A stretch of DNA of 64,000 nt from positions 218,299-282,298 of the forward strand of contig CAWIYR010000003.1 of assembly GCA_963840375.1 (NCBI GenBank). Direction: 5' to 3'. Under the pieces are notes generated by a model. That model made no database searches. It saw only the letters and a list, made by a program, of their open reading frames with translations, and was not told where the DNA came from. The position numbers were made by a program, and so were the translations under genes. The stretch is from an uncultured Chloroflexia bacterium (GTDB taxonomy: Bacteria; Chloroflexota; Limnocylindria; Limnocylindrales; CSP1-4). This document shows positions 774-12,454 of the stretch, piece by piece (positions within the stretch are counted from its first letter, which is position 1; each line of letters starts with the position of its first letter).

Positions 774-1415
774 ATGCCGGAAGGGGACCGGCCCACGACG
801 GGCGGACAGGGTCTGTACCGGCTGAAGCCGGCCTCGCAGCGGCTCGTCGAGCCCTTGGCCGACGGCCTTGCCCGGCGAAGGGTCTCACCGGACCTCATCT
901 CGGCCGCGGCCGTCGTGACCGCCGCCATCGGCGGAGCCTGCCTGGCCGGCTCGACCGCGATGCCGAGCCTGCTCCTCGTCGTCCCGTTCCTGGCGGCCGC
1001 CCGGCTGATCCTCAACCTCCTCGACGGGATGGTCGCCCGACGGACCGGCACCGCTCGCCCGATGGGCGAGGTCTGGAACGAGGTCGGCGACCGCCTCGGG
1101 GACATCGTCTTCATCGGCGCCCTGGCGCTCGTCCCCGAGGTGGGGCCCGGGCTCGCCCTGGGGGCCGCCATGGCCGCCGTCCTCGCCAGCTACGCCGGGC
1201 TGGCGACCCGGGCGGCCGGCGGTCGCCGCCTGTACGGGGGCGTCCTCTCCAAGCCCGGTCGGATGATCGTCCTGGCGGTCGCCGCCCCGCTCGCATTCCT
1301 GGCCGGCGATCCGCGGATCCTCGCCGTGGCCGCCGCGATCCTGCTGGTCGGCGGGGTCGTCACGCTCCTCCAGCGGCTTCGAACCGCGCTGCACGAGCTC
1401 GGTCATGCCGGCTGA
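774..1415 (+). CDS. CDP-alcohol phosphatidyltransferase family protein
   Basis: ATG at 774 is preceded by GGGAGG. The DG(x)2AR...G...G(x)3D(x)3D motif (DGMVARRTG...GEVWNEVGDRLGD) sits in a multi-TM protein, and the stop overlaps the start of the next gene. Confidence 0.8.
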   Translation: MPEGDRPTTGGQGLYRLKPASQRLVEPLADGLARRRVSPDLISAAAVVTAAIGGACLAGSTAMPSLLLVVPFLAAARLILNLLDGMVARRTGTARPMGEVWNEVGDRLGDIVFIGALALVPEVGPGLALGAAMAAVLASYAGLATRAAGGRRLYGGVLSKPGRMIVLAVAAPLAFLAGDPRILAVAAAILLVGGVVTLLQRLRTALHELGHAG

Positions 1416-2340
1416 CCTGATCGTCGACCCGCGGACCGTCCCCGGCGCCGATTACGCCGCCGGCGCGATCCTCGTCCTGCTCGGCGTGACCCTGATCAGC
1501 GTGCTCGTCGCGGGCGGTCTCGGCCGCGGCGGCGCGAGCCCGGGCACGCTCCTGAAGCGCTGGGTGACCTGGGCGGTCCTCGCGCCGCTGTGGTGGCTGG
1601 CCGTCTTCTGCGGGCCGCTCCCGGTCGCGGTGGTCGTGACGATCTTCGCCGTGGTCGGCCTGCTCGAGTTCGCCCGGCTGACCGACCTGCCCGAGGCACA
1701 TCGCCGGCTGCTGCTCGGAGCGGCGCTCCTGTCCGGGGTCCTCAGCCTGTTCGGGTCGACGGCGCTCCTCGCGGCCGTCCCGATCCTCCTCCTGGCCGGG
1801 ATGCTCCTGCCGGTCCTCTTCCCCGACATCCGGTCGGCGGTCCGGCACCTCGCCTTCGGAGCCCTGGCCTTCGGGTACCTGCCGCTCCTCCTGGGACACG
1901 CCGTCCTGATCGTCGAGGACCTGACCGGTGGCGCCGGGATCCTCTTCGCGACCGGGGTGGCGGTCGCCTTCTCGGACATCGGGGCGTACGTCGCGGGACG
2001 GACCTTCGGGCGACACCCGCTGGCGCCGACGATCAGCCCGAACAAGACCGTCGAGGGGCTGGCCGGCAACCTGGTCGGAGCCGTGATCGGCTACGCCATC
2101 TTCCTGCCGGTCCTGCCGACCCTGTCGCCCGTCCTGCTGGCCGCCCTGCCGATCGTCGTCGCGCTCGGCGCGGTCTGGGGCGACCTCTTCGAATCGGCCC
2201 TGAAGCGCGAGTTCGGCACGAAGGACACCGGCACCTGGCTGCCCGGCTTCGGCGGCCTCCTCGACCGGATCGATTCGCTGATCCTCGTCGTCCCCCTCAT
2301 CTACTACCTGTTCCGGGCGGCGGGAGTGCTCAAGCCATGA
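1405..2340 (+). CDS. cdsA: Phosphatidate cytidylyltransferase (CDP-diacylglycerol synthase)
   Basis: C-terminal CdsA signature ...KREFGTKDTGTWLPGFGGLLDRIDSLILVVP..., polytopic membrane protein. Confidence 0.85.
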   Translation: MPADLIVDPRTVPGADYAAGAILVLLGVTLISVLVAGGLGRGGASPGTLLKRWVTWAVLAPLWWLAVFCGPLPVAVVVTIFAVVGLLEFARLTDLPEAHRRLLLGAALLSGVLSLFGSTALLAAVPILLLAGMLLPVLFPDIRSAVRHLAFGALAFGYLPLLLGHAVLIVEDLTGGAGILFATGVAVAFSDIGAYVAGRTFGRHPLAPTISPNKTVEGLAGNLVGAVIGYAIFLPVLPTLSPVLLAALPIVVALGAVWGDLFESALKREFGTKDTGTWLPGFGGLLDRIDSLILVVPLIYYLFRAAGVLKP

Positions 2341-5046
2341 GCGAGGAACGGATCCTGGTGGGGCCGCCGGTCCCCGAGTCGCTCCGCGAGCTGACCGGCG
2401 AGACCCTGATCGAGCTCCTCGAGCGGGCGGTCGAACGCGATCCCGACGCCTCGGTCTTCGTGATGCCGCGGGGCCTCCGGCTCGAGCGCTGGACCTACCG
2501 CGACCTCGAACGGAGCAGCCGGCAGGTGGCCGTCACGCTCGCCGGGCGCGGGGTCGGGCCCGGTGCCCGGGTCGCGACCTGGGCGGCCAACGACCCCTGG
2601 CTCGTGGCCGCCTACTTCGCGGTCTGGCGGCTGGGCGGATCGGTGGTCCCGCTGGACCTGCGGATGGCGCCGGACGTCGCGATCCGGATCGGGCGGACCG
2701 TCCGGCCGGCCCTCACCCTGGCCGGCGCAGGCGGTGAGCGTCGAGGACGCGGCAGCGCTCGGCGCGCCGGTCCTGCGGGTCGACGCCGGGACGTTGCTGG
2801 GGACCGCCGGGGCGGACCAGGCTGCGCCCCGCGGGGACGACCCTGGGGCAGGCGCGAAGCCCGTGAGCGCCTCGATCACGGTGGCCCCCGACACGCTCGC
2901 CGAGGTCCTGTTCACGAGCGGGACGACGAGCGACCCGAAGGGCGTGATGCTGACCCACGGCCAGATGATCCACAACGCCCGGACGATCGCCCTCACCGCC
3001 GGGATCCGCCGCGAGCGGGCCCTCGCGCTCATCCCGCTCTCCCACATGTACGGCCAGATCGTGCCCCTCCTGTATGGGCTGCTCACCGGCTCGCAGCTGA
3101 CCTTCCTGCCCGCCCTCACCCCGTCGGCGCTGATGGCGGCGATGCGACGCGACCGGGTCACGGTCATCACCGCGGTGCCCCAGCTGCTCAAGCTCCTCAT
3201 GGACGGGATCGAGGCCGAGGCGAACCGCGAGGGGCGACTGGACCGACTCCGGCAGATCCGCCGGATCGCCCTCGTCCTGCCCATCCCCGTCCGGCGGCTC
3301 CTCTTCCGCTCGGTCCTCGAGCGCTTCGGCGGGGAGCTCCGGACGATCACCTGCGGCGGCGCGGCCCTTTCGGCCGACCTCCAGCTCGCCTGGGAGGCGC
3401 TCGGGATCGTCATCGTCCAGGGCTACGGCGCGACCGAGTGCGCCACGATCGCCGGTCACACCCGGACCGCCCGCCGGGCCGGGACCGTCGGGCCACCGCT
3501 GGCCGGGATGGAGGTCCGGATCGGGTCGGACGGCGAGCTCATCGCCCGGGGGCCCAACGTCATGCTCGGCTACTGGGACAAGCCCGAGCAGACCGCCGAG
3601 GTCATCGTCGACGGCTGGGCACATTCCGGCGACGCCGCCGAGATCGACCCCCATGGCGACCTCATCATCCACGGCCGCACCCGGGACCGGATCGCCCTGC
3701 CGAACGGTCTGAAGGTCTACCCCGAGGACGTCGAGGCGGCGATCGTCGAGGCCGGCTCCGTCCGGGCCGCCGTGGTCTTCGAGGCGAGCCCGGGTCGACT
3801 CGCCGCGGTCCTCCTGCCGGCCGATCCCGCTGCGGCGGACGCCGACCTCGACGGCGCGGTCGAGCGCGCGAACCACGCCCTCTCGCCCCACCAGCGGGTG
3901 CGACGCTGGGTCCGCTGGCCGGACCCCGAGCTGCCGCGGACGCACACCCTCAAGGTTCGCCGGGCCGAGGTGCTGGCCTGGTACTCGGCCGATGCCGGCA
4001 CCACCGGGTCCACGACGACACCGGAGACCGAGGCGACCGACGAGCGGGCGAGCCCCGGAGCGTCCGGCGGCGGCGCCGGTCCCGGACGGCGCTCCGGGTC
4101 GTCCCCGACCGCCGACGGATCGAGGGTCGTCCCGACCTCCGCCGAGGCCGTGCTTCCGGCACTCATCGACCTGGTCGCCCACGTCGTCGAGGCTGGTGGG
4201 CACCCGAGCTCCCCGATCGGGCCGACGACCACCCTCGAGGCCCTCGGCTTCGACTCCCTCGGCCGGGTCGGGCTGGCGATCCAGATCGAGGATCGCTTCG
4301 GCTCGTCGCTCGATGACTCGGACATCGCGGGCGCCGAGGATATCGCCGGGCTCGCCCATGTCATCGTGGCGCGACGCGATGCCGCCCCGCCCCCGGAGCC
4401 ACCCCGCTGGGCGCACACTCCGCCGGCGAAGACGGTCCGGCGCTGGCTCGACCGGCTTGTCACCGGCCCGGTCGTCGCGATGATCGCCCGCCCCCGGGTC
4501 GACGGGCTGGAGCACCTCGCCGGGCTCGACGGCCCGTTCCTGCTCTGCCCGAACCACGCCAGCCACCTCGACGCGCCGACGCTCCGGTCTGTCCTGCCGG
4601 CCGCGGTGCGCGACCGGACCGCGATCGCGGCCGCCGCCGACTACTTCTTCGCCGGCGGCCTCCTGGGACCCGCCGTCGCGCTGGCGACCGGGGCGTTCCC
4701 GTTCGGCCGGACCGAGCACGTCCGCTCGTCGCTGGAGCGGGTCGGGTCGTATGTCGACGCCGGCTGGAACGTCATCGTCTTCCCGGAGGGCACCCGCTCG
4801 ACGACCGGCCGGCTCGGGCCGATGAAGGCCGGGATCGGCCTGCTCGCCACACAGCTCGGCGTGCCGGTCGTGCCGATCGGGATCCGCGGCGCCGACCGGA
4901 TCCTGCCGAAGGGCGCCACCCTGCCGCGGTGGCGGGGGCGGGTCGGCGTCCGGATCGGCGAGCCGCTGACCTTCGAGCCCGACTGCCCGGTGCCCGAAGC
5001 GACCGCCCGGATCGAGGCGGCGATCCGGGGTCTCGTCGGGGCTTGA
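2337..5046 (+). CDS. Fused fatty-acyl-AMP ligase/acyl-CoA synthetase, carrier (PP-binding) domain and lysophospholipid acyltransferase (PlsC-like); interrupted by one +1 frameshift near 2722-2735
   Basis: The N-terminus (MSEERILVGPP...VVPLDLRMAP...RPALTLAG) reads in frame 0 from 2337; sense then continues in frame 1 (AQAVSVEDAAALG...LFTSGTTSDPKGVMLTH...). The product has an AMP-binding core, a GFDSL phosphopantetheine-attachment motif, and NHASHLD (HX4D) plus FPEGTRS acyltransferase motifs. Confidence 0.7.
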
Positions 5047-5047
5047 G

Positions 5048-6382
5048 ATGGCGCTCCGGGCGCTCTCGAACGCGGAGTACGTCGCGGACGTCGTCGGCGC
5101 CGCCCTGGCCTACCCCGCCTACCGGCGTCGGGAATCCTGGTCGACCGATCGGCTCCGGGCGTGGCAACTCCGTCGGGTCCGGTCGCTGGTCGACCGGGCC
5201 TACGCCTCGGTACCCGTCTACCGGGAGCGCTACGGTGCAGCGGGCTACCACCCGGGCGACATCCGGACCTGGGATGACTTCGCTCGCCTGCCGACCATCA
5301 CGAAGGTGGATCTCGTCGGCGCGTACCCGGAGCGGTCGGTGGCGGCCGACACCCCGCTGGCCCGCTGCCTGATCTCGACGAGCTCCGGGTCGACCGGTCG
5401 GATGATGGAGATCCCCCACCGAGCCGACCGGCTCTGGCCCTATGTCCTGGTCACCGAGCGCCTGTTCCGACGCCTGGCCGGGCGCTACCCACCGAGCTGG
5501 CGGCAGGCCTACATCTACACCTCGCCCTATCCGGTCCGTGGCTCGCTCGGGCTCTACCCGACGACATTCATCCCGACCGCGGACGACCCGGCGCCGATGC
5601 TCGACGCGCTGCGGCGCTGCCGGCCCCGGCTCCTGGCGGTCTATCCGACCGTCCTGCGCGACCTCCTGGCCGCCGACGCCGCGACGATGCGGGCCCTCGG
5701 GCTGCAGGCCGTCGCCGTCTCGAGCGAGCACTCGACGGCCGAGGAGCGTCGCGGTTGGACCGAGCTGCTGGGCTGCCCGGTCGGCGACCAGTACAGCAGC
5801 GAGGAGCTCGCCTACATCGCGGCCGAGTGCGTGGCGGGGACCTACCACCTCGTCGAGGACCTGACCCTCGTCGAGATCCTCGACCCCGACGCCGATCGAC
5901 CGGTCGACGGGATCGGCGAGGTCGTCGGGACGGAGCTCCACAACCGGACGATGCCGTTCATCCGCTACCGCCAGGGCGACCTCGCCCGGGTCGAGATGGG
6001 GACCTGCCCCTGCCGTCCGACGGCCGGTCCGGTCCGCCGGCTGACCGAGCTCGCCGGGCGAGCCAACGACGGCTTCATCCTGGCTGGCGGGCGGACGCTG
6101 TCGCCGGGCTTCCTCCTCGACGCCTGCTACCGGGCGATCCTGCCCCGACCGGCCGAGGTGGCGGCCTACCGGCTGGTCCAGACGGCGCCGGATCGGGCCG
6201 TCCTGGAGGTCGTCCCGGGCCCGACCTGGGACGAGGCGAGCGCCGGGCGGCTCGGCGCGGCGCTGGCCGCCGAGCTCCCGCTCGACCTTCGGGGCGACGT
6301 CCGGGTCGTCGAGCGGCTCGACCGCGCCGAGGCCGGCAAGCGGGCGACGATCGTCCGCCATCGGTCGCTCAGCGCAGCGTGA
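5048..6382 (+). CDS. Adenylate-forming enzyme of the phenylacetate-CoA ligase / coenzyme F390 synthetase (PaaK/CapK-like) family
   Basis: P-loop-like STSSGSTGRMMEIPH motif and overall PaaK-like layout; start codon lies 1 nt after the previous stop, suggesting translational coupling. Confidence 0.75.
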   Translation: MALRALSNAEYVADVVGAALAYPAYRRRESWSTDRLRAWQLRRVRSLVDRAYASVPVYRERYGAAGYHPGDIRTWDDFARLPTITKVDLVGAYPERSVAADTPLARCLISTSSGSTGRMMEIPHRADRLWPYVLVTERLFRRLAGRYPPSWRQAYIYTSPYPVRGSLGLYPTTFIPTADDPAPMLDALRRCRPRLLAVYPTVLRDLLAADAATMRALGLQAVAVSSEHSTAEERRGWTELLGCPVGDQYSSEELAYIAAECVAGTYHLVEDLTLVEILDPDADRPVDGIGEVVGTELHNRTMPFIRYRQGDLARVEMGTCPCRPTAGPVRRLTELAGRANDGFILAGGRTLSPGFLLDACYRAILPRPAEVAAYRLVQTAPDRAVLEVVPGPTWDEASAGRLGAALAAELPLDLRGDVRVVERLDRAEAGKRATIVRHRSLSAA

Positions 6383-6827
6383 AGTAGGCGCCGTAGATGA
6401 CGACCATGAGCCCCACGTACCCTGCCATGACCGCCCGCGGGTGGCGGCCGATCGGACGCCGGAAGACGGTCCCCACGACCCAGGCCACCGCGGCCGAGAG
6501 CCCGACCCGTTCGAGCCGGTTCAGGGCGACCATCAGCAGGACGCCCCCGAGCGGCTGGCCGAGGAGCGCCGCCTCGTGGATGTAGAGCTTGACCGGGAGA
6601 CCCTGGAGGGGGCCGTTCAGGAACGCCCCGAGCCCCTGACCGCCGAGCTCGCCCGACGCGGTCGCCAGATCGACCGGGCGGATCCCCGGGAGGGCCGCGA
6701 TGGCCTCGCCGAGGACGGGCCAAACCGGGGTGAGCCACCACAGGACGGTCGCGCCGACGAGCGCACCGGCGACCGTCGCCAGGAGGACCTTGAGCGTCCG
6801 CCCGGGAGCGAACAGGGCCACGAACAT
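6369..6827 (-). CDS. DedA/YqaA-like (SNARE-associated) membrane protein; N-terminus unresolved (homology continues upstream to about 6935 without an in-frame start codon)
   Basis: C-terminal part of minus ORF 6369..7730: ...LLFLVPDLWVMFVALFAPGRTLKV...GIRPVDLATASGELGG... is YqaA-like. The only in-frame canonical start is the ATG at 6827; the first TM and ~10 hydrophobic residues before the VP motif lie upstream of it. Confidence 0.45.
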   Translation of the reverse strand: MFVALFAPGRTLKVLLATVAGALVGATVLWWLTPVWPVLGEAIAALPGIRPVDLATASGELGGQGLGAFLNGPLQGLPVKLYIHEAALLGQPLGGVLLMVALNRLERVGLSAAVAWVVGTVFRRPIGRHPRAVMAGYVGLMVVIYGAYFTLR

Positions 6828-6920
6828 GACCCACAGGTCGGGGACCAGGAAGAGGAGCGACGCCTCGGCGGCGCCCCAGCCGGCCGCGACCCAGAGCGCA
6901 CCGGTGGAGGCGGCGATCCG

Positions 6921-8205
6921 GTGGATGGTCGAAGGGGAGCGCGGCTCGGCGTCGCGGCCCGTGGTCGCGCCGGGTGGCGCGTTCGCGTCGGAAGCAGGCG
7001 CCGCCGCGGACTGCGTCTGCGCGCCCGCCTCACCGCCCTGCGTTCGGGGATCGTCTACAGCCGGGTCTGGGAGGACGACCGGGTCGACCGGCTGGCCCTC
7101 GCGATCGAGCCCGGCGACCGGGTCCTCGTCGTCGCCTCGGCCGGCGACGTCGCCCTTCATGCCGCGCTCGACGGCGCCCGAGAGGTCATCGCGGTCGACC
7201 GGAACCCCGCCCAACTCCACCTCCTGGAGCTCAAGCTCGCCGCACTTCGGACGCTCGACGCAGATGCGTTCTGGACACTCTTCGGCGAAGGCCGCTCGCC
7301 GGCCGGCGCCGCCTGGTACGACCGGCTGCGACCGGCGCTGCCGCCTCCGAGCCGGCGGTACTGGGACCGGCACGCCGGGCTGTTCGACCTGGGACTGATG
7401 CACCAGTCCCGGGTGGAGCTGGGCCTCCTCCTCCTCGGTCCGCTCGTTCGTGGGATCGCGGGCCGGCGGGACTTCGCCCGACTGATCGAGGCGCCCGATG
7501 TCCGGGCCCAGGGACAACTCTACGCCCGCCGCTCGGCGCGACGCCTGTGGAATCCGGTCACCCGCCGGGCGATCCGGTGGAGCGGGCTGCTGGCCCTGCT
7601 CACGATGAACCGCGAGCAGTGGCGCCTGGTCGGTCGACGACCGCTTCCTCGACGGCTTCGAGGAGCGGGTCGCCTCCCTCGTTGACCGCGAGCTCGTCCG
7701 CGAGAACCCGTTCTGGTGTCGCGTCCTCACCGGGCAGCCGTGCGAGCAGGCTCACGAAGTCGCCTATCTGGCGCCCGGGGCGTTCGAACGTCTCGGCGGC
7801 TGCGCCCCGGCGATCCGGCCCCGGCTCGGCCCGCTCGTGATGATCCTCCGGGGCGAACCCGACGCGAGCCTCGACGCGATCGATCTCCTCGACGTCCCCG
7901 ATTGGCTGCAGCCGCCGGCCCGGCGTGAGCTCTGGGGCGAGGTCGGCCGGGTCCTCCGGCCGGGCGGGCGGTGCCTGACCAGGTCGATCTCGCGACGGCC
8001 GGACCTCCCCGGCCCGGGTCGCGGCCTGGTGCTGGACGGGCCGCTGTCGAGGCAGCTCACCGCGATGGAGCGGACGGCCGTCTACGGCTCGGTGACCGTC
8101 CTCCGGAGGGCCGCGGTCGAGTCAGGCCCGGCCGGCCGGCCGGTCGCCGACGCGCCGGTCAGCGTCGGGCCGATCAGCGCCGGGCCGGTCGCCACAGCGC
8201 GGTGA
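6921..8205 (+). CDS. DUF3419 / BtaA-like protein (family of S-adenosylmethionine:diacylglycerol 3-amino-3-carboxypropyl transferase); frameshift near 7609-7627, start uncertain
   Basis: IVYSRVWEDD, VLVVASAGDVALHAAL, VIAVDRNPAQLHLLELKLAALRTLD and FWTLFG read in frame 0; ENPFWCRVLTG...DAIDLLDVPDWL... continues in frame 1 to the stop at 8205. The nearest in-frame canonical start is the GTG at 6921. Confidence 0.55.
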
Positions 8206-8659
8206 TCGTCGAGCCCGGGAGGAAGCCCTCGAACGAGCCCACCGGCTCGAACCCGAGGCGCCCGTAACGGGCGTCATCGGCTGGGTTCGTCGACTCGAGG
8301 TAGGCCGGCATCCCCTGGCCGTCGATCAGCTCCAGGTTGTCCGCCAGCAGACGCATCCCGTGACCGGCACCACGATGGTCCGGGTGCGTCCCGAGCAGGC
8401 TCAGATAGTGGTGCGGCTCCGACCGGTACCCGGGGCGCCCGCCCCGGGTAGCCGCCGCGCCCGCCTGGGCCGACGAATCGTGACAGGTGACCACCAGGCG
8501 GGCACTCGACAGCGGAGACCCGCCTCTCGAGGCCTCGCGAACCCGCGATCCATCCCGGGCCACGCTCACGCCGGGCGATCCATCCGTTCGAGAAGCCCGA
8601 ACCAGGGCCCGAGCGGGGCTCGGGCGGTGACGAATGACCGGGTGATGGGCATCTGACAA
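8174..8659 (-). CDS. GNAT family N-acetyltransferase (C-terminal half is clearly GNAT; N-terminal half atypical and possibly disrupted)
   Basis: YLSLLGTHPDHRGAGHGMRLL...AYLESTNPADDARYGRLGFEPVG matches GNAT motifs A/B; the N-terminal 80 aa are Arg/Ser-rich and not GNAT-like. Confidence 0.45.
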   Translation of the reverse strand: MSDAHHPVIRHRPSPARALVRASRTDGSPGVSVARDGSRVREASRGGSPLSSARLVVTCHDSSAQAGAAATRGGRPGYRSEPHHYLSLLGTHPDHRGAGHGMRLLADNLELIDGQGMPAYLESTNPADDARYGRLGFEPVGSFEGFLPGSTITALWRPARR

Positions 8660-8665
8660 GAAGCG

Positions 8666-8718
8666 GGCCCCCGGCGCGAGATCATGGCCCCCGGCGCGGG
8701 ATCATGGCCCCCGGCGCC
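8666..8718. repeat. 20-bp tandem direct repeat, about 2.6 copies (ggcccccggcgcg[a/g]gatcat)
   Basis: Visible directly: gcccccggcgcgagatcatggcccccggcgcgggatcatggcccccggcgcc immediately upstream of the GNAT start. Confidence 0.6.
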
Positions 8719-8758
8719 GAACGGGGCCGGGGCCGCCACCGAGCCGATGTCGCTCTGG

Positions 8759-8782
8759 ATATTCCGATCGCGATCGGAATAT
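8759..8782. promoter_or_regulatory. Perfect 24-bp palindrome ATATTCCGATCGCGATCGGAATAT (candidate operator for a dimeric regulator)
   Basis: Exact reverse-complement symmetry, and AT-rich relative to its surroundings, in the long GNAT/nrdJ intergenic region. Confidence 0.45.
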
Positions 8783-8961
8783 CGTACGGACGTTCGATTT
8801 CGGCGATCCCACGACCCTCCGTGCCGGTGCCATCCGAGCTCCCGCCAGGCTCACACCCAGCCACCGCGCCATCCGTTCGTCCACACTCCGTCCACCGTCG
8901 CCGACGACTCGTCCACAGCCCGATCGGGAGCTGTCCACCGCGGATGCCCAATTCATCCACA

Positions 8962-9012
8962 GCCACAGCATGTAGCGGTACGATGGTCCGGCGCACCACT
9001 ACATCTTGTGTT
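8962..9012 (+). promoter_or_regulatory. Two tandem NrdR-box-like sites upstream of nrdJ
   Basis: acagcATGTAGcggt and CACTACATCTTGTG both approximate the NrdR box consensus acaCwAtATaTwGtgt. Their centre-to-centre spacing is about 31 bp, the usual tandem arrangement, and they lie about 350 bp upstream of the nrdJ ATG. Confidence 0.5.
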
Positions 9013-9356
9013 TCGGGGGTTGACTGCGGCCGGAGCGGGAGGTATCGTAGGAGGGTCGCTCGCCCGCGAGGGAACGCGCCGGAACGACCGCTCGGGACCG
9101 CTCGGATCGCGGCTCCAGGGTCGACCCGGGACCCGCCCGGAACGACGATCACGGAGGACCGGTCGCAGCTACGCCCGACGGGCACCACCAGAGCGAGTGG
9201 ACCCTCGACCCGGGCACGGACAAGCCTCCGGACCCAGTCCATCGACCCACCGGCATCGTGGGTCCCAGCCGCCGCATCAAGCCCCCGTCAGCCCCACCGA
9301 CCCCGGCGGAGACCGGGGACCCGCACCCGCCCAGCGCGTTGGAGGAGAGAGCAACG

Positions 9357-12300
9357 ATGGCCCGAGCCGCCGTCCAGGGAGTCCCGGTGATGGAACAGCC
9401 CAAGTCCACCGGTCGGAAGACGCCGCACCGCCACCACGGCCCGTACGGGGTGAGCTTCAACGGCCAGAACCCGGACGGCAGCCCCGCCAGGGGCCTGACC
9501 TTCGAGCGGCGCTGGACCCGGCCGGGCGTCCATCCCTACGACGAGATCCGCTGGGAGACCCGGACCGCGACCATCGGCAACGAGTCGGGCAAGCTCGTCT
9601 TCGAGCAGAAGGACGTCGAGGTCCCGGAGTTCTGGAGCCAGCTGGCCACCAACGTCGTCGTCAGCAAGTACTTCCGCGGCCACCTCGGGCACGCCGGAGC
9701 GCGAGACGAGCGTCCGCCAGCTCATCGACCGGGTCGTCAACACGATCGCGGCCTGGGCCGAGACCCAGCGCTACTTCGCGACCGACGCGGACCTGCGAGA
9801 CGTTCAAGGCGGAGCTCACCCACCTCCTGGTCCACCAGAAGATGAGCTTCAACTCGCCGGTCTGGTTCAACGTGGGGATCGAGCAGAAGCCGCAGTGCTC
9901 GGCCTGCTTCATCAACTCGGTCCAGGACTCGATGTCCTCGCATCATGGACCTGGCCAAGACCGAGGCGATGCTCTTCAAGTTCGGCTCGGGCGCCGGCTC
10001 CAACCTCTCCCCCATCCGCTCCAGCCGGGAGAAGATGTCGGGCGGCGGCACGGCCAGCGGCCCGGTCAGCTTCATGAAGGGCTACGACGCCTTCGCCGGC
10101 GTGGTGAAGTCGGGCGGCAAGACCCGGCGCGCCGCCAAGATGGTCATCCTCGACGTCGACCACCCGGACATCCTCGACTTCATCGACTCGAAGAAGCACG
10201 AGGAGGAGAAGGCCTGGGCGCTCATCGAGATGGGCTACGACCCCAGCTTCACCGGCGAGGCCTACGGCTCGGTCTTCTTCCAGAACGCGAACCACAGCGT
10301 CCGGGTGACCGACGAGTTCATGCAGTCGGTGGTCGACGACCGCGACTGGACCACCCACGCCGTCGTCGACAAGAAGCCGATGGGCACCTACAAGGCGCCG
10401 CGACATCTTCCGCCGGATGGCCGACGCCGCCCACCTCTGCGGCGACCCCGGGATCCAGTACGACACGCACGATCAACGACTGGCACACCTCGCGCGAACA
10501 CGGACCGGATCTACGCCACGAACCCGTGCTCCGAGTACATGTTCCTCAACGACACGGCCTGCAACCTGGCCAGCCTCAACCTCATGAAGTTCGTCCGCGA
10601 GGACGGTGAGTTCGACGTCGAGGCCTACCGCTACGCCGCCGGCTGACGATCACCGCCCAGGAGATCCTCGTCGACAACGCGTGCTACCCGACGCCGCGGA
10701 TCGAGGAGAACTCCCATCGCTTCCGGCCGCTCGGGCTGGGCTACGCCAACCTCGGCGCGCTGCTCATGAGCCGCGGCCTGGCCTACGACAGCGACGAGGG
10801 CCGGGACTACGCCGCCGCCCTGACCGCGATCATGCACGGCGAGGCGTATCGCCAGAGCGCGATCATCGCCCGCGACCACGGCGGCCCGTTCGCCGAGTAC
10901 AAGGTCAACGAGCAGCCGTTCCTGCGGGTCATCGGCAAGCACCGCGACGCGGCCTACCGGATCCCGGCCGACCAGGCGTCCCGGCCGACCTGCTGGCGGC
11001 CGCCCGGGTCGTCTAGGACGAGGCCCTCGAGCTGGGGCCGGCAGCACGGCTACCGCAACGCCCAGGTCACCGTCCTGGCCCCGACCGGCACGATCGCCTT
11101 CATGATGGACTGCGACACCACCGGCATCGAGCCGGACATCGCCCTCATCAAGTACAAGAAGCTCGTCGGCGAGGGCTTCCTCAAGATCGTCAACCAGACG
11201 GTCCCGGCAGCGCTCAAGAAGCTCGGCTACGCGCCCGACCAGGTCGAGGAGATCCTCGCCTACGTCAACGAGCGCGAGACGATCGAGGGCGCCCCGCACG
11301 TCAAGCCCGAGCACCTGTCGGTCTTCGACTGCGCGTTCAAGCCGGTCAACGGCGAGCGGTCCATCCACTACATGGGCCACGTCCGGATGATGGCCGCCGT
11401 CCAGCCGTTCCTCTCGGGCGCGATCAGCAAGACCGTCAACATGCCCGAGGCCGCCACCACCGAGGAGATCGAGCAGGTCTACCTCGAGGGCTGGAAGCTG
11501 GGTCTCAAGGCGATCGCGATCTACCGCGACGGCTCCAAGCGCAGCCAGCCGCTGAGCACGGGCAAGAAGAAGGACGACGAGGCCGACGCCGGGGTCGTCG
11601 CCGAGCTCCGGGCCCAGCTCGCCGCGGCCCAGGCCGAGGCGAAGAAGCCCCACCGGCATCGGCTGCCGACCGAGCGGACCGCGATCACCCACAAGTTCGA
11701 CATCGCCGGCCACGAGGGCTACATCACGGTCGGGCTCTACCCGGACGGCCAGCCCGGCGAGATCTTCCTGAAGATGGCCAAGGAGGGCTCGACCGTGTCG
11801 GGCCTGATGGACACCTTCGCGACCTCGGTCAGCCTCGCCCTCCAGTACGGCGTGCCGCTGCGCGACCTGGTCAACAAGTTCGCCCACGTCCGGTTCGAGC
11901 CGAGCGGCTTCACCGGCAACCAGGAGATCCCGATCGCGAAGTCGATCGTCGACTACATCTTCCGCTGGATGGGCAGCCGCTTCCTGCCGGCCGACGAGAA
12001 GGCCCAGATCGGGCTGATCGACCGTGCCGCGGTGACGGACGCCCCGGCCGCCGGCGGGTTCGGTGGCGGCTTCGGTGGGTTCGCCTCACCGGCCGCTGAC
12101 GCCCGACGGCCGAGGAGGGCCCGTCGGCCATCGACGAGGCGGTCGAGCCGCCGTCCGACCGAACCGCGGGCGACCGCGGTCGCCGCCGAGCCGGCGCCGG
12201 TCGCCAAGGCGGCCCTGCCGGTCGTCGAGTCGGCTGCCACCAACGGTCACGCGAACGGCAACGGGAACGGCAAGGCCAACGGGAACGGCAACGGTCACGC

Positions 12301-12454
12301 CCTGAGCGCGATCACCGCCTCGCTCGGGACGACGAAGGTCTCCTTCACCGTCCAGGAGGACGCCCCCAGCTGCGCCGAGTGCGGCTCGATCATGGTCCGC
12401 AACGGCAGCTGCTACAAGTGCCTCAACTGCGGCAGCACGAGCGGCTGCAGCTGA
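9357..12454 (+). pseudogene. nrdJ: Adenosylcobalamin-dependent ribonucleoside-diphosphate reductase (class II RNR) NrdJ; as written it is broken by at least 8 frameshifts, probably sequencing or assembly indels rather than decay
   Basis: Strong SD (GGAGGAGAGAG) before the ATG at 9357. Conserved NrdJ sense (FEQKDVEVPEFWSQLATNVVVSKYFRG; ETFKAELTHLLVHQKMSFNSPVWFNVG; GSGAGSNLSPIRSSREKMSGGGTASGPVSFMKGYD; NPCSEYMFLNDTACNLASLNL; LAPTGTIAFMMDCDTTGIEPD; AIAIYRDGSKRSQPL; C-terminal CxxC...CxxC tail) jumps between all three forward frames at roughly 9695, 9800, 9940, 10400-10500 (two), 10640 and 10975-11035 (two). Confidence 0.85.

Follow-up and report, generated by a model that had tools for sequence, protein, structure and literature searches.

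A ligase-carrier-acyltransferase fusion protein encoded beside putative CDP-lipid genes in an uncultured Chloroflexia bacterium

In the present study, we examined a 64,000-nucleotide stretch of DNA (hereafter the window) from an uncultured soil Chloroflexia bacterium (GTDB lineage Bacteria; Chloroflexota; Limnocylindria; Limnocylindrales; CSP1-4), corresponding to positions 218,299 to 282,298 of the forward strand of contig CAWIYR010000003.1 (GenBank assembly GCA_963840375.1), with a base composition of about 73% G+C. Near its beginning lies a gene (2337..5046) coding for a protein in which an acyl-adenylating domain, a phosphopantetheine carrier domain and a PlsC-type acyltransferase domain follow one another, hereafter called the tri-domain gene. 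It is preceded by genes for a CDP-alcohol-transferase-like protein and a CdsA-like cytidylyltransferase, an association that recurs across phyla. A previous examination of the letters alone (the sequence-only reading) had recognised the three domains and had proposed an inverted counterpart of Escherichia coli Aas acting in lipid reacylation.

Organisation of the tri-domain gene

The coding sequence is distributed over two reading frames of the forward strand. Codons 1-130 (2337..2726) align gap-free, at 90% identity, to the first 130 residues of an intact homologue (P0002), and codons 131-902, together with the TGA stop (5044-5046), occupy 2728..5046, in single-frame collinearity with residues 132-911 of the same homologue. 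Between them, alignment to the DNA of the two nearest genomes locates a single extra base, and with it a +1 frame shift, at approximately 2727 (within 2721-2731, ggcgCaggcgg). Joining the frame of 2337 to that of 2728 yields one protein of 902 amino acids (aa), in which all catalytic motifs are intact. Its ATG at 2337 overlaps the stop codon of the upstream CdsA-like gene (ATGA).

Four Pfam domains were identified on the joined protein, all on the forward strand. The N-terminal adenylation domain, long-chain acyl-CoA-synthetase-like (AMP-binding, PF00501, 6.5e-69), covers residues 28-413 (2418..3576), matches the whole profile (1-384) and spans the frame break; its P-loop, TSGTTSDPKG, is encoded at 2914-2943. 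The C-terminal adenylation subdomain (AMP-binding_C_3, PF23562) follows at residues 450-550 (3685..3987), with the A10 lysine, K539, at 3952-3954. A low-complexity linker (residues 557-594, 4006..4119), gappy and variable in length among homologues, leads to the carrier domain (PP-binding, PF00550, 2.6e-9; residues 614-675, 4177..4362), whose predicted phosphopantetheine-attachment residue, Ser640, stands in the motif LGFDSL and is encoded at 4255-4257. Finally, the PlsC/LPLAT-type (lysophospholipid acyltransferase) domain (PF01553, 9.6e-22) occupies residues 720-849 (4495..4884), with the motifs NHASHLD (4552-4572), AFPFGR (4693-4710), FPEGTRS (4780-4800) and VPVVPI (about 4861-4881).

An AlphaFold2 (AF2) model of the joined sequence gave a mean predicted local distance difference test score (pLDDT) of 86.4 and a predicted template-modelling score (pTM) of 0.81. 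The carrier is modelled as a three-to-four-helix fold (pLDDT 81-92), and the linker falls below 50. Profile-based domain mapping and structure prediction, which the sequence-only reading had called for, therefore support its claim of an acyl-AMP ligase, a carrier and a PlsC-like acyltransferase in one polypeptide. The pattern is not fortuitous: the E-values lie far below chance expectation, and the domain order is repeated in over 70 close homologues and in many distant ones. When the full model was searched against the PDB by fold, only ANL enzymes and didomains composed of an adenylation domain and a peptidyl carrier protein (A-PCP) were retrieved, and no tri-domain structure.

Nature of the frame break

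The two closest genomes are L002, an uncultured Chloroflexota metagenome-assembled genome (MAG) with 84-95% amino-acid identity, and L001. Where the window reads 'ggc gCaggcg gtgagc', these relatives read 'ggc g-gtgcc gtgagc'; the one-base insertion occurs in the window only, and accounts for the +1 frame change that had been noticed at about 2722-2735. The joined protein aligns gap-free to its homologues through the junction, homologues of 855-925 aa, more than 70 in number, run through without interruption, and the tri-domain gene has no second frame change. A scan of the whole window for GC3 periodicity (G+C at third codon positions) confirms the two coding frames of this gene, a method which, used without reference sequences, cannot tell frameshifts from gene boundaries.

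As the raw sequence holds two overlapping open reading frames (ORFs), one might envisage a pair of distinct genes, or else ribosomes programmed to shift by +1 at about 2727. We regard this as scarcely credible, because the break bisects the AMP-binding domain, over which the Pfam match is continuous and across which the AF2 model is confident (pLDDT 91-97 over residues 120-140), and because relatives without frameshift or extra base leave no conserved shift site. Both proposals were rejected on these grounds. The sequence-only reading had itself named separate genes for the two halves as a finding that would count against it; uninterrupted relatives and a break inside a folded domain make them very improbable.

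Conserved neighbours carry at least 10 additional frame breaks. The class II ribonucleotide reductase gene (9402-12451, forward strand), a gene of essential type, shows at least nine frame changes in 3.1 kb, its pieces being 84-95% identical to the L001 orthologue, and a DUF3419 gene has a one-base insertion at about 7631 (ctggtcGgtcgac in the window versus ctcgtc-gtcgcc in relatives). Given that the extra base is missing from the relatives, and that the conserved neighbours show many frame breaks without sequence decay, we consider the insertion at about 2727 most likely to be an error of assembly or sequencing, and the tri-domain gene to be intact in the organism. A genuine frameshift, by which the gene would be inactivated in this strain, is improbable. 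It agrees with the presence of the extra base in the deposited sequence, with the gene as predicted by the source itself (P0001, 770 aa), which begins downstream of the break, and with a break site that is not a long homopolymer; yet the lesion is single, it is accompanied neither by stop codons nor by excess substitutions, 86% identity to P0002 is kept over the whole length, and the undecayed but frame-broken neighbours, ribonucleotide reductase included, point to technical indels contig-wide. One-base indels are frequent in this contig, and apparent frameshifts in it should not count as biology.

The assembly of L002 may contain frame errors as well, since its UppS region (7272-9076) aligns with the window in two distinct frames. 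By their isolate and contig names, the relatives appear to be long-read metagenome bins. The L001 ribonucleotide reductase contains an intein (Intein_splicing and LAGLIDADG) that is absent from the window copy.

Domain classes and conserved motifs

Motif conservation was read from an alignment of 69 full-length homologues. In the adenylation domain, T193-G202, G362-E367 (GYGATE), G431-D432, G446-R451 and K539 are invariant. All the signatures of the ANL superfamily were found, i.e. the P-loop TSGTTxxPKG, GYGxTE, GDxA, GRxxD and the catalytic A10 lysine. The best NCBIfam matches are long-chain fatty-acid-CoA ligases, and those in the PDB are FadD13, FadD5 and feruloyl/fatty-acyl-CoA synthetases. 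By its sequence, the domain is of the long-chain acyl-CoA-synthetase type, and we assign a fatty acid as its probable substrate because of these matches. The fatty-acyl-AMP ligase (FAAL) subclass is distinguished by a specific insertion and a remodelled pocket rejecting CoA (PMC8460268). The top sequence and structure matches of the adenylation domain are CoA ligases (FadD13, MenE, CBAL), with no FAAL among them.

In the carrier domain, D639-S640-L641 are invariant or nearly so, S640 being strictly invariant, and the conserved serine stands in the (D/E)S(L/I) context typical of carrier proteins. No phosphopantetheinyl transferase gene was seen among the window genes examined. That the carrier is a working one is indirectly supported by an archaeal contig (that of homologue P0425), in which a gene for such an enzyme (ACPS) lies two genes from the tri-domain gene.

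All four LPLAT motifs are present in the acyltransferase domain: NHASHLD (739-745), AFPFGR (786-791), FPEGTRS (815-821) and VPVVPI (about 842-848). H740, D745, F789, R791, F815-G818 and R820 are invariant; the LGFDSL, HX4D and FPEGTR motifs on which the sequence-only reading had relied are thus all conserved across the alignment. In PlsC and glycerol-3-phosphate acyltransferases (GPAT), the arginines of motifs II and III, to which R791 and R820 correspond, bind the acceptor phosphate. Only one solved structure was matched by this domain, the 1-acyl-sn-glycerol-3-phosphate acyltransferase PlsC of Thermotoga maritima (5kym, 1.3e-9). This enzyme shares the HX4D and FPEGTRS motifs, but is a stand-alone protein of 247 aa to which acyl-ACP (acyl carrier protein) or acyl-CoA is supplied in trans. 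The A-PCP didomains of carboxylic acid reductase and of nonribosomal peptide synthetase modules (e.g. 5mss, 5t3d) align over both domains of the model. In them, too, the adenylation domain precedes a carrier which it loads in cis; what comes next, however, is a reductase or else a condensation/thioesterase domain, where the window protein has its PlsC-type acyltransferase.

Distribution and comparison with ElbD

A word-indexed protein search returned 1350 matches, the top 70 being full-length and sharing the three Pfam domains. A scan of genomes revealed the same architecture, at about 30% identity, in many Acidobacteriota, an Acidimicrobiaceae MAG, TA06, Saccharibacteria-labelled bins and a Woesearchaeota-labelled contig, the last being genuinely archaeal, as shown by its GatD and GatE genes. 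When the carrier and acyltransferase part alone served as query, exhaustive searching by HMMER at E <= 1e-30 yielded 304 cluster representatives (50% identity); among the 150 best, some 50 are proteins of 790-895 aa matched at their C-terminus. Overall, hundreds of proteins of 800-960 aa with this design occur in Chloroflexota, Acidobacteriota, TA06, Acidimicrobiia, DPANN-type archaeal contigs and Saccharibacteria-labelled MAGs.

The architecture is real and widespread, and it is not new. A survey of FAALs mentions bacterial fusions 'with lysophospholipid acyltransferases' (PMC8460268), and 'ElbD-like homologues' of other phyla are reported to 'almost all lack a FAR1 domain' (PMC9131029). With a ligase-ACP-acyltransferase core like that of ElbD, hundreds of homologues in databases and these mentions in the literature, the fusion is less unusual than the sequence-only reading had implied. 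The family, though comprising hundreds of 50%-identity clusters, is without a characterised member and is annotated in databases only as 'long-chain acyl-CoA synthetase'. The window protein does not differ architecturally from the other fusions that lack the fatty-acyl reductase (FAR) domain: it has the same three domains in the same order within about 800-960 aa. What sets its clade apart is the operon described below, and the existence of close relatives with separate ligase and acyltransferase genes and no carrier.

ElbD was compared by its published description. ElbD of Myxococcus xanthus is composed of a FAR1-like reductase, a ligase, an ACP and an acyltransferase resembling acylglycerol-phosphate acyltransferases (AGPAT) (PMC9131029). 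The last three domains are shared with the window protein in the same order, but the additional N-terminal reductase and the elbA-E operon are not: the window ORF starts at the adenylation domain, right after cdsA, and neither ElbB (HAD-like), ElbC nor ElbE (NAD-dependent epimerase) has a counterpart among the operon neighbours. Membership in the ElbD family was rejected on account of the missing FAR domain and operon partners.

An ElbD without its FAR domain might still act with a separate reductase to produce alkyl or alkenyl ether lipids. The common core is compatible with such a role, as are the FAR-less homologues of the literature (PMC9131029) and a 2026 preprint which describes elbD split between its reductase and adenylation domains, with GPAT, diacylglycerol (DAG)-kinase and CDP-alcohol-transferase neighbours (bioRxiv 10.64898/2026.06.23.733905). 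We nevertheless consider it very unlikely. The window ORF has no reductase domain, and its operon has no gene for a reductase, an ElbB-like HAD protein, an ElbE-like epimerase or AGPS. None of the 150 closest relatives of the carrier-acyltransferase part reaches 1200 aa, the length needed to accommodate a FAR domain; likewise, no N-terminal extension was found in distant homologues, none of 24 such ORFs having room for a FAR domain of about 370 aa.

Gene neighbourhood in the window

The forward strand upstream of the tri-domain gene carries two lipid-related genes. The first (774..1415) encodes a 213-aa CDP-alcohol-transferase-like protein, resembling archaetidylinositol- or phosphatidylinositol-phosphate synthases (AIPS/PIPS-like), which matches PF01066 weakly (17 bits against a cut-off of 22) and remains below the cut-off of the NCBIfam archaetidylinositol-phosphate synthase model (82 versus 180 bits). 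The canonical CDP-alcohol phosphatidyltransferase motif, DxxDGxxARx8GxxxDxxxD, is replaced by N82-xx-D85-G-xx-A-R90-x8-G99-E-xx-N103-E-xx-D107-xxx-D111, in which the first and third canonical Asp have become Asn. This variant is invariant in seven sequences from three phyla, being kept in Chloroflexota, TA06 and archaeal homologues. The second gene (1405..2340) encodes the CdsA-like cytidylyltransferase (PF01148, 6.1e-52) and overlaps both its neighbours. An UppS gene lies further upstream (1-684).

Downstream, an intact gene (5048..6382, forward strand) encodes a 444-aa adenylate-forming enzyme of the PaaK/F390-synthetase type, the homologues of which came almost exclusively from metagenome contigs of Limnocylindria type. 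The sequence-only reading had regarded it as translationally coupled to the tri-domain gene. Its ATG at 5048 indeed stands 1 nt after the tri-domain stop, and it is an adenylating enzyme of the PaaK type; in the related contig L082, however, they are separated and do not share a strand, so that the pairing holds for the window without being general. On the reverse strand, a small membrane protein of about 190 aa (6369 to about 6950) is supported by GC3 periodicity on that strand. Its start codon is unclear, no in-frame ATG, GTG or TTG being present between 6850 and 7130 of the window, and no Pfam family matched; it is 30-65% identical to same-module genes in L001, L082 and L084/85, with the motif AxAEAxxLxVPD. 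The DUF3419 gene (7038..8205, forward strand), broken at about 7631, encodes a BtaA-like S-adenosylmethionine-dependent enzyme, both halves of which match Pfam; the intact L001 orthologue covers positions 9-384 of the 385-position profile (1.9e-63). In the window, a CTG aligns to the ATG start of the orthologue. No further lipid gene was found among ten large ORFs sampled between 12 and 64 kb of the window.

Recurrence of the gene module

The identical gene set is present in L001 and L002, and the AIPS-like partner accompanies the tri-domain gene, whole or in parts, in L001-L003, L010, L022, L082-L085, L087 and the P0425 contig. The module is rearranged or split in L003, L082, L083 and L084/85. 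In the last two, a sister lineage (L084 8001-14799; L085 1029-7827), a 545-aa ligase, 66% identical to the window adenylation domain, and a 214-aa acyltransferase are encoded separately, with no carrier in the cluster; these contigs were independently assembled, and their proteins are identical. A minimal trio of CdsA-like, acyltransferase and AIPS-like genes is found in L087.

In TA06 (L010) and two archaeal contigs (L022 and the P0425 contig), the module is reduced to the AIPS-like, CdsA-like and tri-domain genes. L022 (9998-14257) combines the tri-domain gene and bacterial-type CdsA-like and AIPS-like genes with GatD and GatE. The P0425 contig, which also carries the archaea-specific GatD, additionally has genes for ACPS (a 4'-phosphopantetheinyl transferase), Lgt and PEMT/ICMT-like proteins, lgt being adjacent to the tri-domain gene. 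To judge from these genes, the two DPANN-type archaeal contigs encode a putative fatty-acid-based lipid toolkit.

This neighbourhood is our most informative new result: the association of CdsA-like, AIPS-like and acyltransferase genes recurs across phyla. It suggests that the acyltransferase works with the cytidylyltransferase and the CDP-alcohol transferase, the ligase, with or without a carrier, being an add-on that would supply the acyl donor. The acyltransferase is placed in a CDP-lipid pathway because its neighbours match the order of phosphatidate synthesis, CDP-activation and head-group attachment. Pathway coupling is further indicated by the AIPS-like, CdsA-like, tri-domain and PaaK-like genes overlapping or sitting 1 nt apart, together with the recurring synteny. 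The tri-domain family nonetheless probably serves more than one pathway, since most homologues at about 30% identity, e.g. those of Acidobacteriota, lack CdsA-like and AIPS-like neighbours, and some distant ones lie beside genes for major facilitator superfamily (MFS) or flippase-like proteins.

Comparison with Aas and the repair hypothesis

Direct alignment to E. coli Aas paired adenylation residues 175-502 with Aas 355-655 (27% identity, E 7e-24) and acyltransferase residues 735-853 with Aas 31-141 (29% identity, E 1e-8), and found no Aas counterpart to the carrier domain. Both catalytic domain types are shared, as is the concept of activating a free fatty acid before placing it on a lysolipid. 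Aas, however, has its acyltransferase at the N-terminus and its synthetase at the C-terminus, and uses free ACP; the reversed order and built-in carrier were correctly perceived by the sequence-only reading. An ACSL-type insert of 40 residues (about 293-330) is likewise present in the window adenylation domain and absent from Aas, and E. coli Aas has LplT as its partner, whereas CdsA-like and CDP-alcohol-transferase-like genes take that place beside the window gene. The scores for the NCBIfam Aas equivalogs NF006386 and NF005291 were 143.9 bits (cut-off 1221) and 128.1 bits (cut-off 1349). Orthology with Aas was rejected from these cut-offs and from the reversed domain order with an inserted carrier; on sequence comparison, the tri-domain protein is best described as a domain-permuted analogue of Aas, and not its orthologue.

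Could it nonetheless serve membrane repair in the manner of Aas, re-acylating lysophospholipids (e.g. 2-acyl-glycerophosphoethanolamine arising from lipoprotein maturation or phospholipases) with scavenged fatty acids? The permuted pair of catalytic domains and the partial matches to the Aas models are in keeping with this role. So are two features of the neighbourhoods: distant homologues beside MFS (L005, L015) or LPG_synthase_TM (L012, L006) genes recall aas-lplT, and lgt adjoins the tri-domain gene on the P0425 contig, Lgt belonging to the lipoprotein maturation pathway, which gives rise to lysolipids. The Aas cut-offs were, however, missed widely, the MFS neighbours do not match the LplT model, and the window and its relatives have an operon with CdsA-like and CDP-alcohol-transferase genes and no transporter. 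We consider this role unlikely. The reacylation proposed by the sequence-only reading, taken in the sense of Aas repair, is thus less likely than lipid synthesis, which the operon suggests.

The distant homologues concerned are followed by the flippase-like LPG_synthase_TM protein at 12366-13442 in L012 and 12370-13392 in L006, and by the MFS transporter at 12456-13703 in L005 and 11391-12518 in L015. The MFS genes had been considered as candidate LplT-like partners and were discarded for want of a match to the LplT model.

Proposed pathway

The explanation that we favour, with moderate confidence, is that the enzyme activates a fatty acid, tethers the acyl group and acylates a glycerophosphate acceptor feeding CDP-diacylglycerol-dependent lipid synthesis. 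The ACSL-type domain would adenylate a free long-chain fatty acid, and the acyl group would then be thioesterified to the phosphopantetheine borne by Ser640 of the built-in carrier, not to CoA or free ACP, the disordered 38-residue linker (557-594) allowing the carrier to move. The PlsC-type domain (HX4D, FPEGTRS) would pass the acyl group to the free hydroxyl of a glycerophosphate-type acceptor, probably 1-acyl-glycerol-3-phosphate in view of the PlsC match and the CdsA-like neighbour, and the product would be phosphatidic acid. This could serve as substrate for the CdsA-like cytidylyltransferase and, after it, for the AIPS/PIPS-like CDP-alcohol transferase, both encoded just upstream. Elaboration of the head group in the window lineage is probably the task of three further proteins, namely the PaaK-like ligase, the BtaA-like DUF3419 protein and the small membrane protein. 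A fatty-acid substrate, loading of the carrier by its own ligase, this acceptor and this product are what the domains and neighbours most likely indicate. A precedent exists in the related core of M. xanthus ElbD, the ligase and carrier activities of which were confirmed in vitro, as PMC9131029 reports from Lorenzen et al. 2014.

Several points weigh against this explanation. Sister lineages (L084/85) have a split ligase and acyltransferase without a carrier, and because they run the module in this form, the tether is not essential to the pathway; the ligase may also make acyl-CoA. There is no GPAT in the operon, and one acyltransferase domain cannot alone make phosphatidic acid from glycerol-3-phosphate; the acceptor could be another lysolipid or a non-glycerol alcohol. 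With two of the four canonical Asp changed to Asn in the AIPS-like partner, the chemistry may not be classical. The rarity of CdsA-like and AIPS-like neighbours among the homologues at about 30% identity means that the family may serve more than one pathway, and no FAR-less member of it is characterised. That the extra base at about 2727 is an error is probable rather than proved. Finally, the acyltransferase activity of ElbD could not be demonstrated in vitro (PMC9131029).

A bolder extension, which we advance as tentative and rather doubtful, is that the tri-domain enzyme is the main PlsC equivalent of Limnocylindria-type Chloroflexota, and in reduced form of TA06 and DPANN archaea, within a seven-gene module making an undescribed polar lipid. 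The second acyl chain would come from free fatty acids through a private in-cis carrier, and not from the acyl-ACP of type II fatty acid synthesis (FAS-II). The module would include the tri-domain, CdsA-like, Asn-variant AIPS-like, PaaK-like and BtaA-like DUF3419 genes and the membrane protein, and a candidate product would bear an inositol-phosphate- or homoserine-type head group, further amidated. If the mechanism that we favour is right, this enzyme family would build glycerolipids straight from free fatty acids, independently of CoA and of the cellular ACP pool, which would explain its presence in genome-reduced lipid scavengers (DPANN archaea, Saccharibacteria-labelled MAGs) as well as in soil Chloroflexota and Acidobacteriota, abundant and uncultured bacteria. 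The conserved operon is the part worth following; it provides a concrete and testable lipid-synthesis pathway in a class without cultured lipidomics; no paper describing this module was found in the literature searched.

Variant arrangements in related contigs

Two further contigs display other arrangements around tri-domain homologues. In L081, a protein of 619 aa containing the catalytic domain of a DAG kinase (6122-7981) precedes P0070, a homologue 50% identical to the window protein; HAD-hydrolase and NAD-epimerase genes lie nearby, a context more elb-like than that of the window. In L083 (8001-11593), P0112 (929 aa) appears as a fusion of the CdsA-like protein and the ligase, followed by an overlapping gene of 285 aa with a truncated PP-binding domain and the acyltransferase. 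These two ORFs may represent a four-domain protein or, more likely, an assembly indel artefact. P0112 had been considered as Rosetta-stone evidence of functional linkage and was downgraded, since the assembly is of an error-prone type and the natural ATGA overlap between the two genes makes an artefactual fusion easy.

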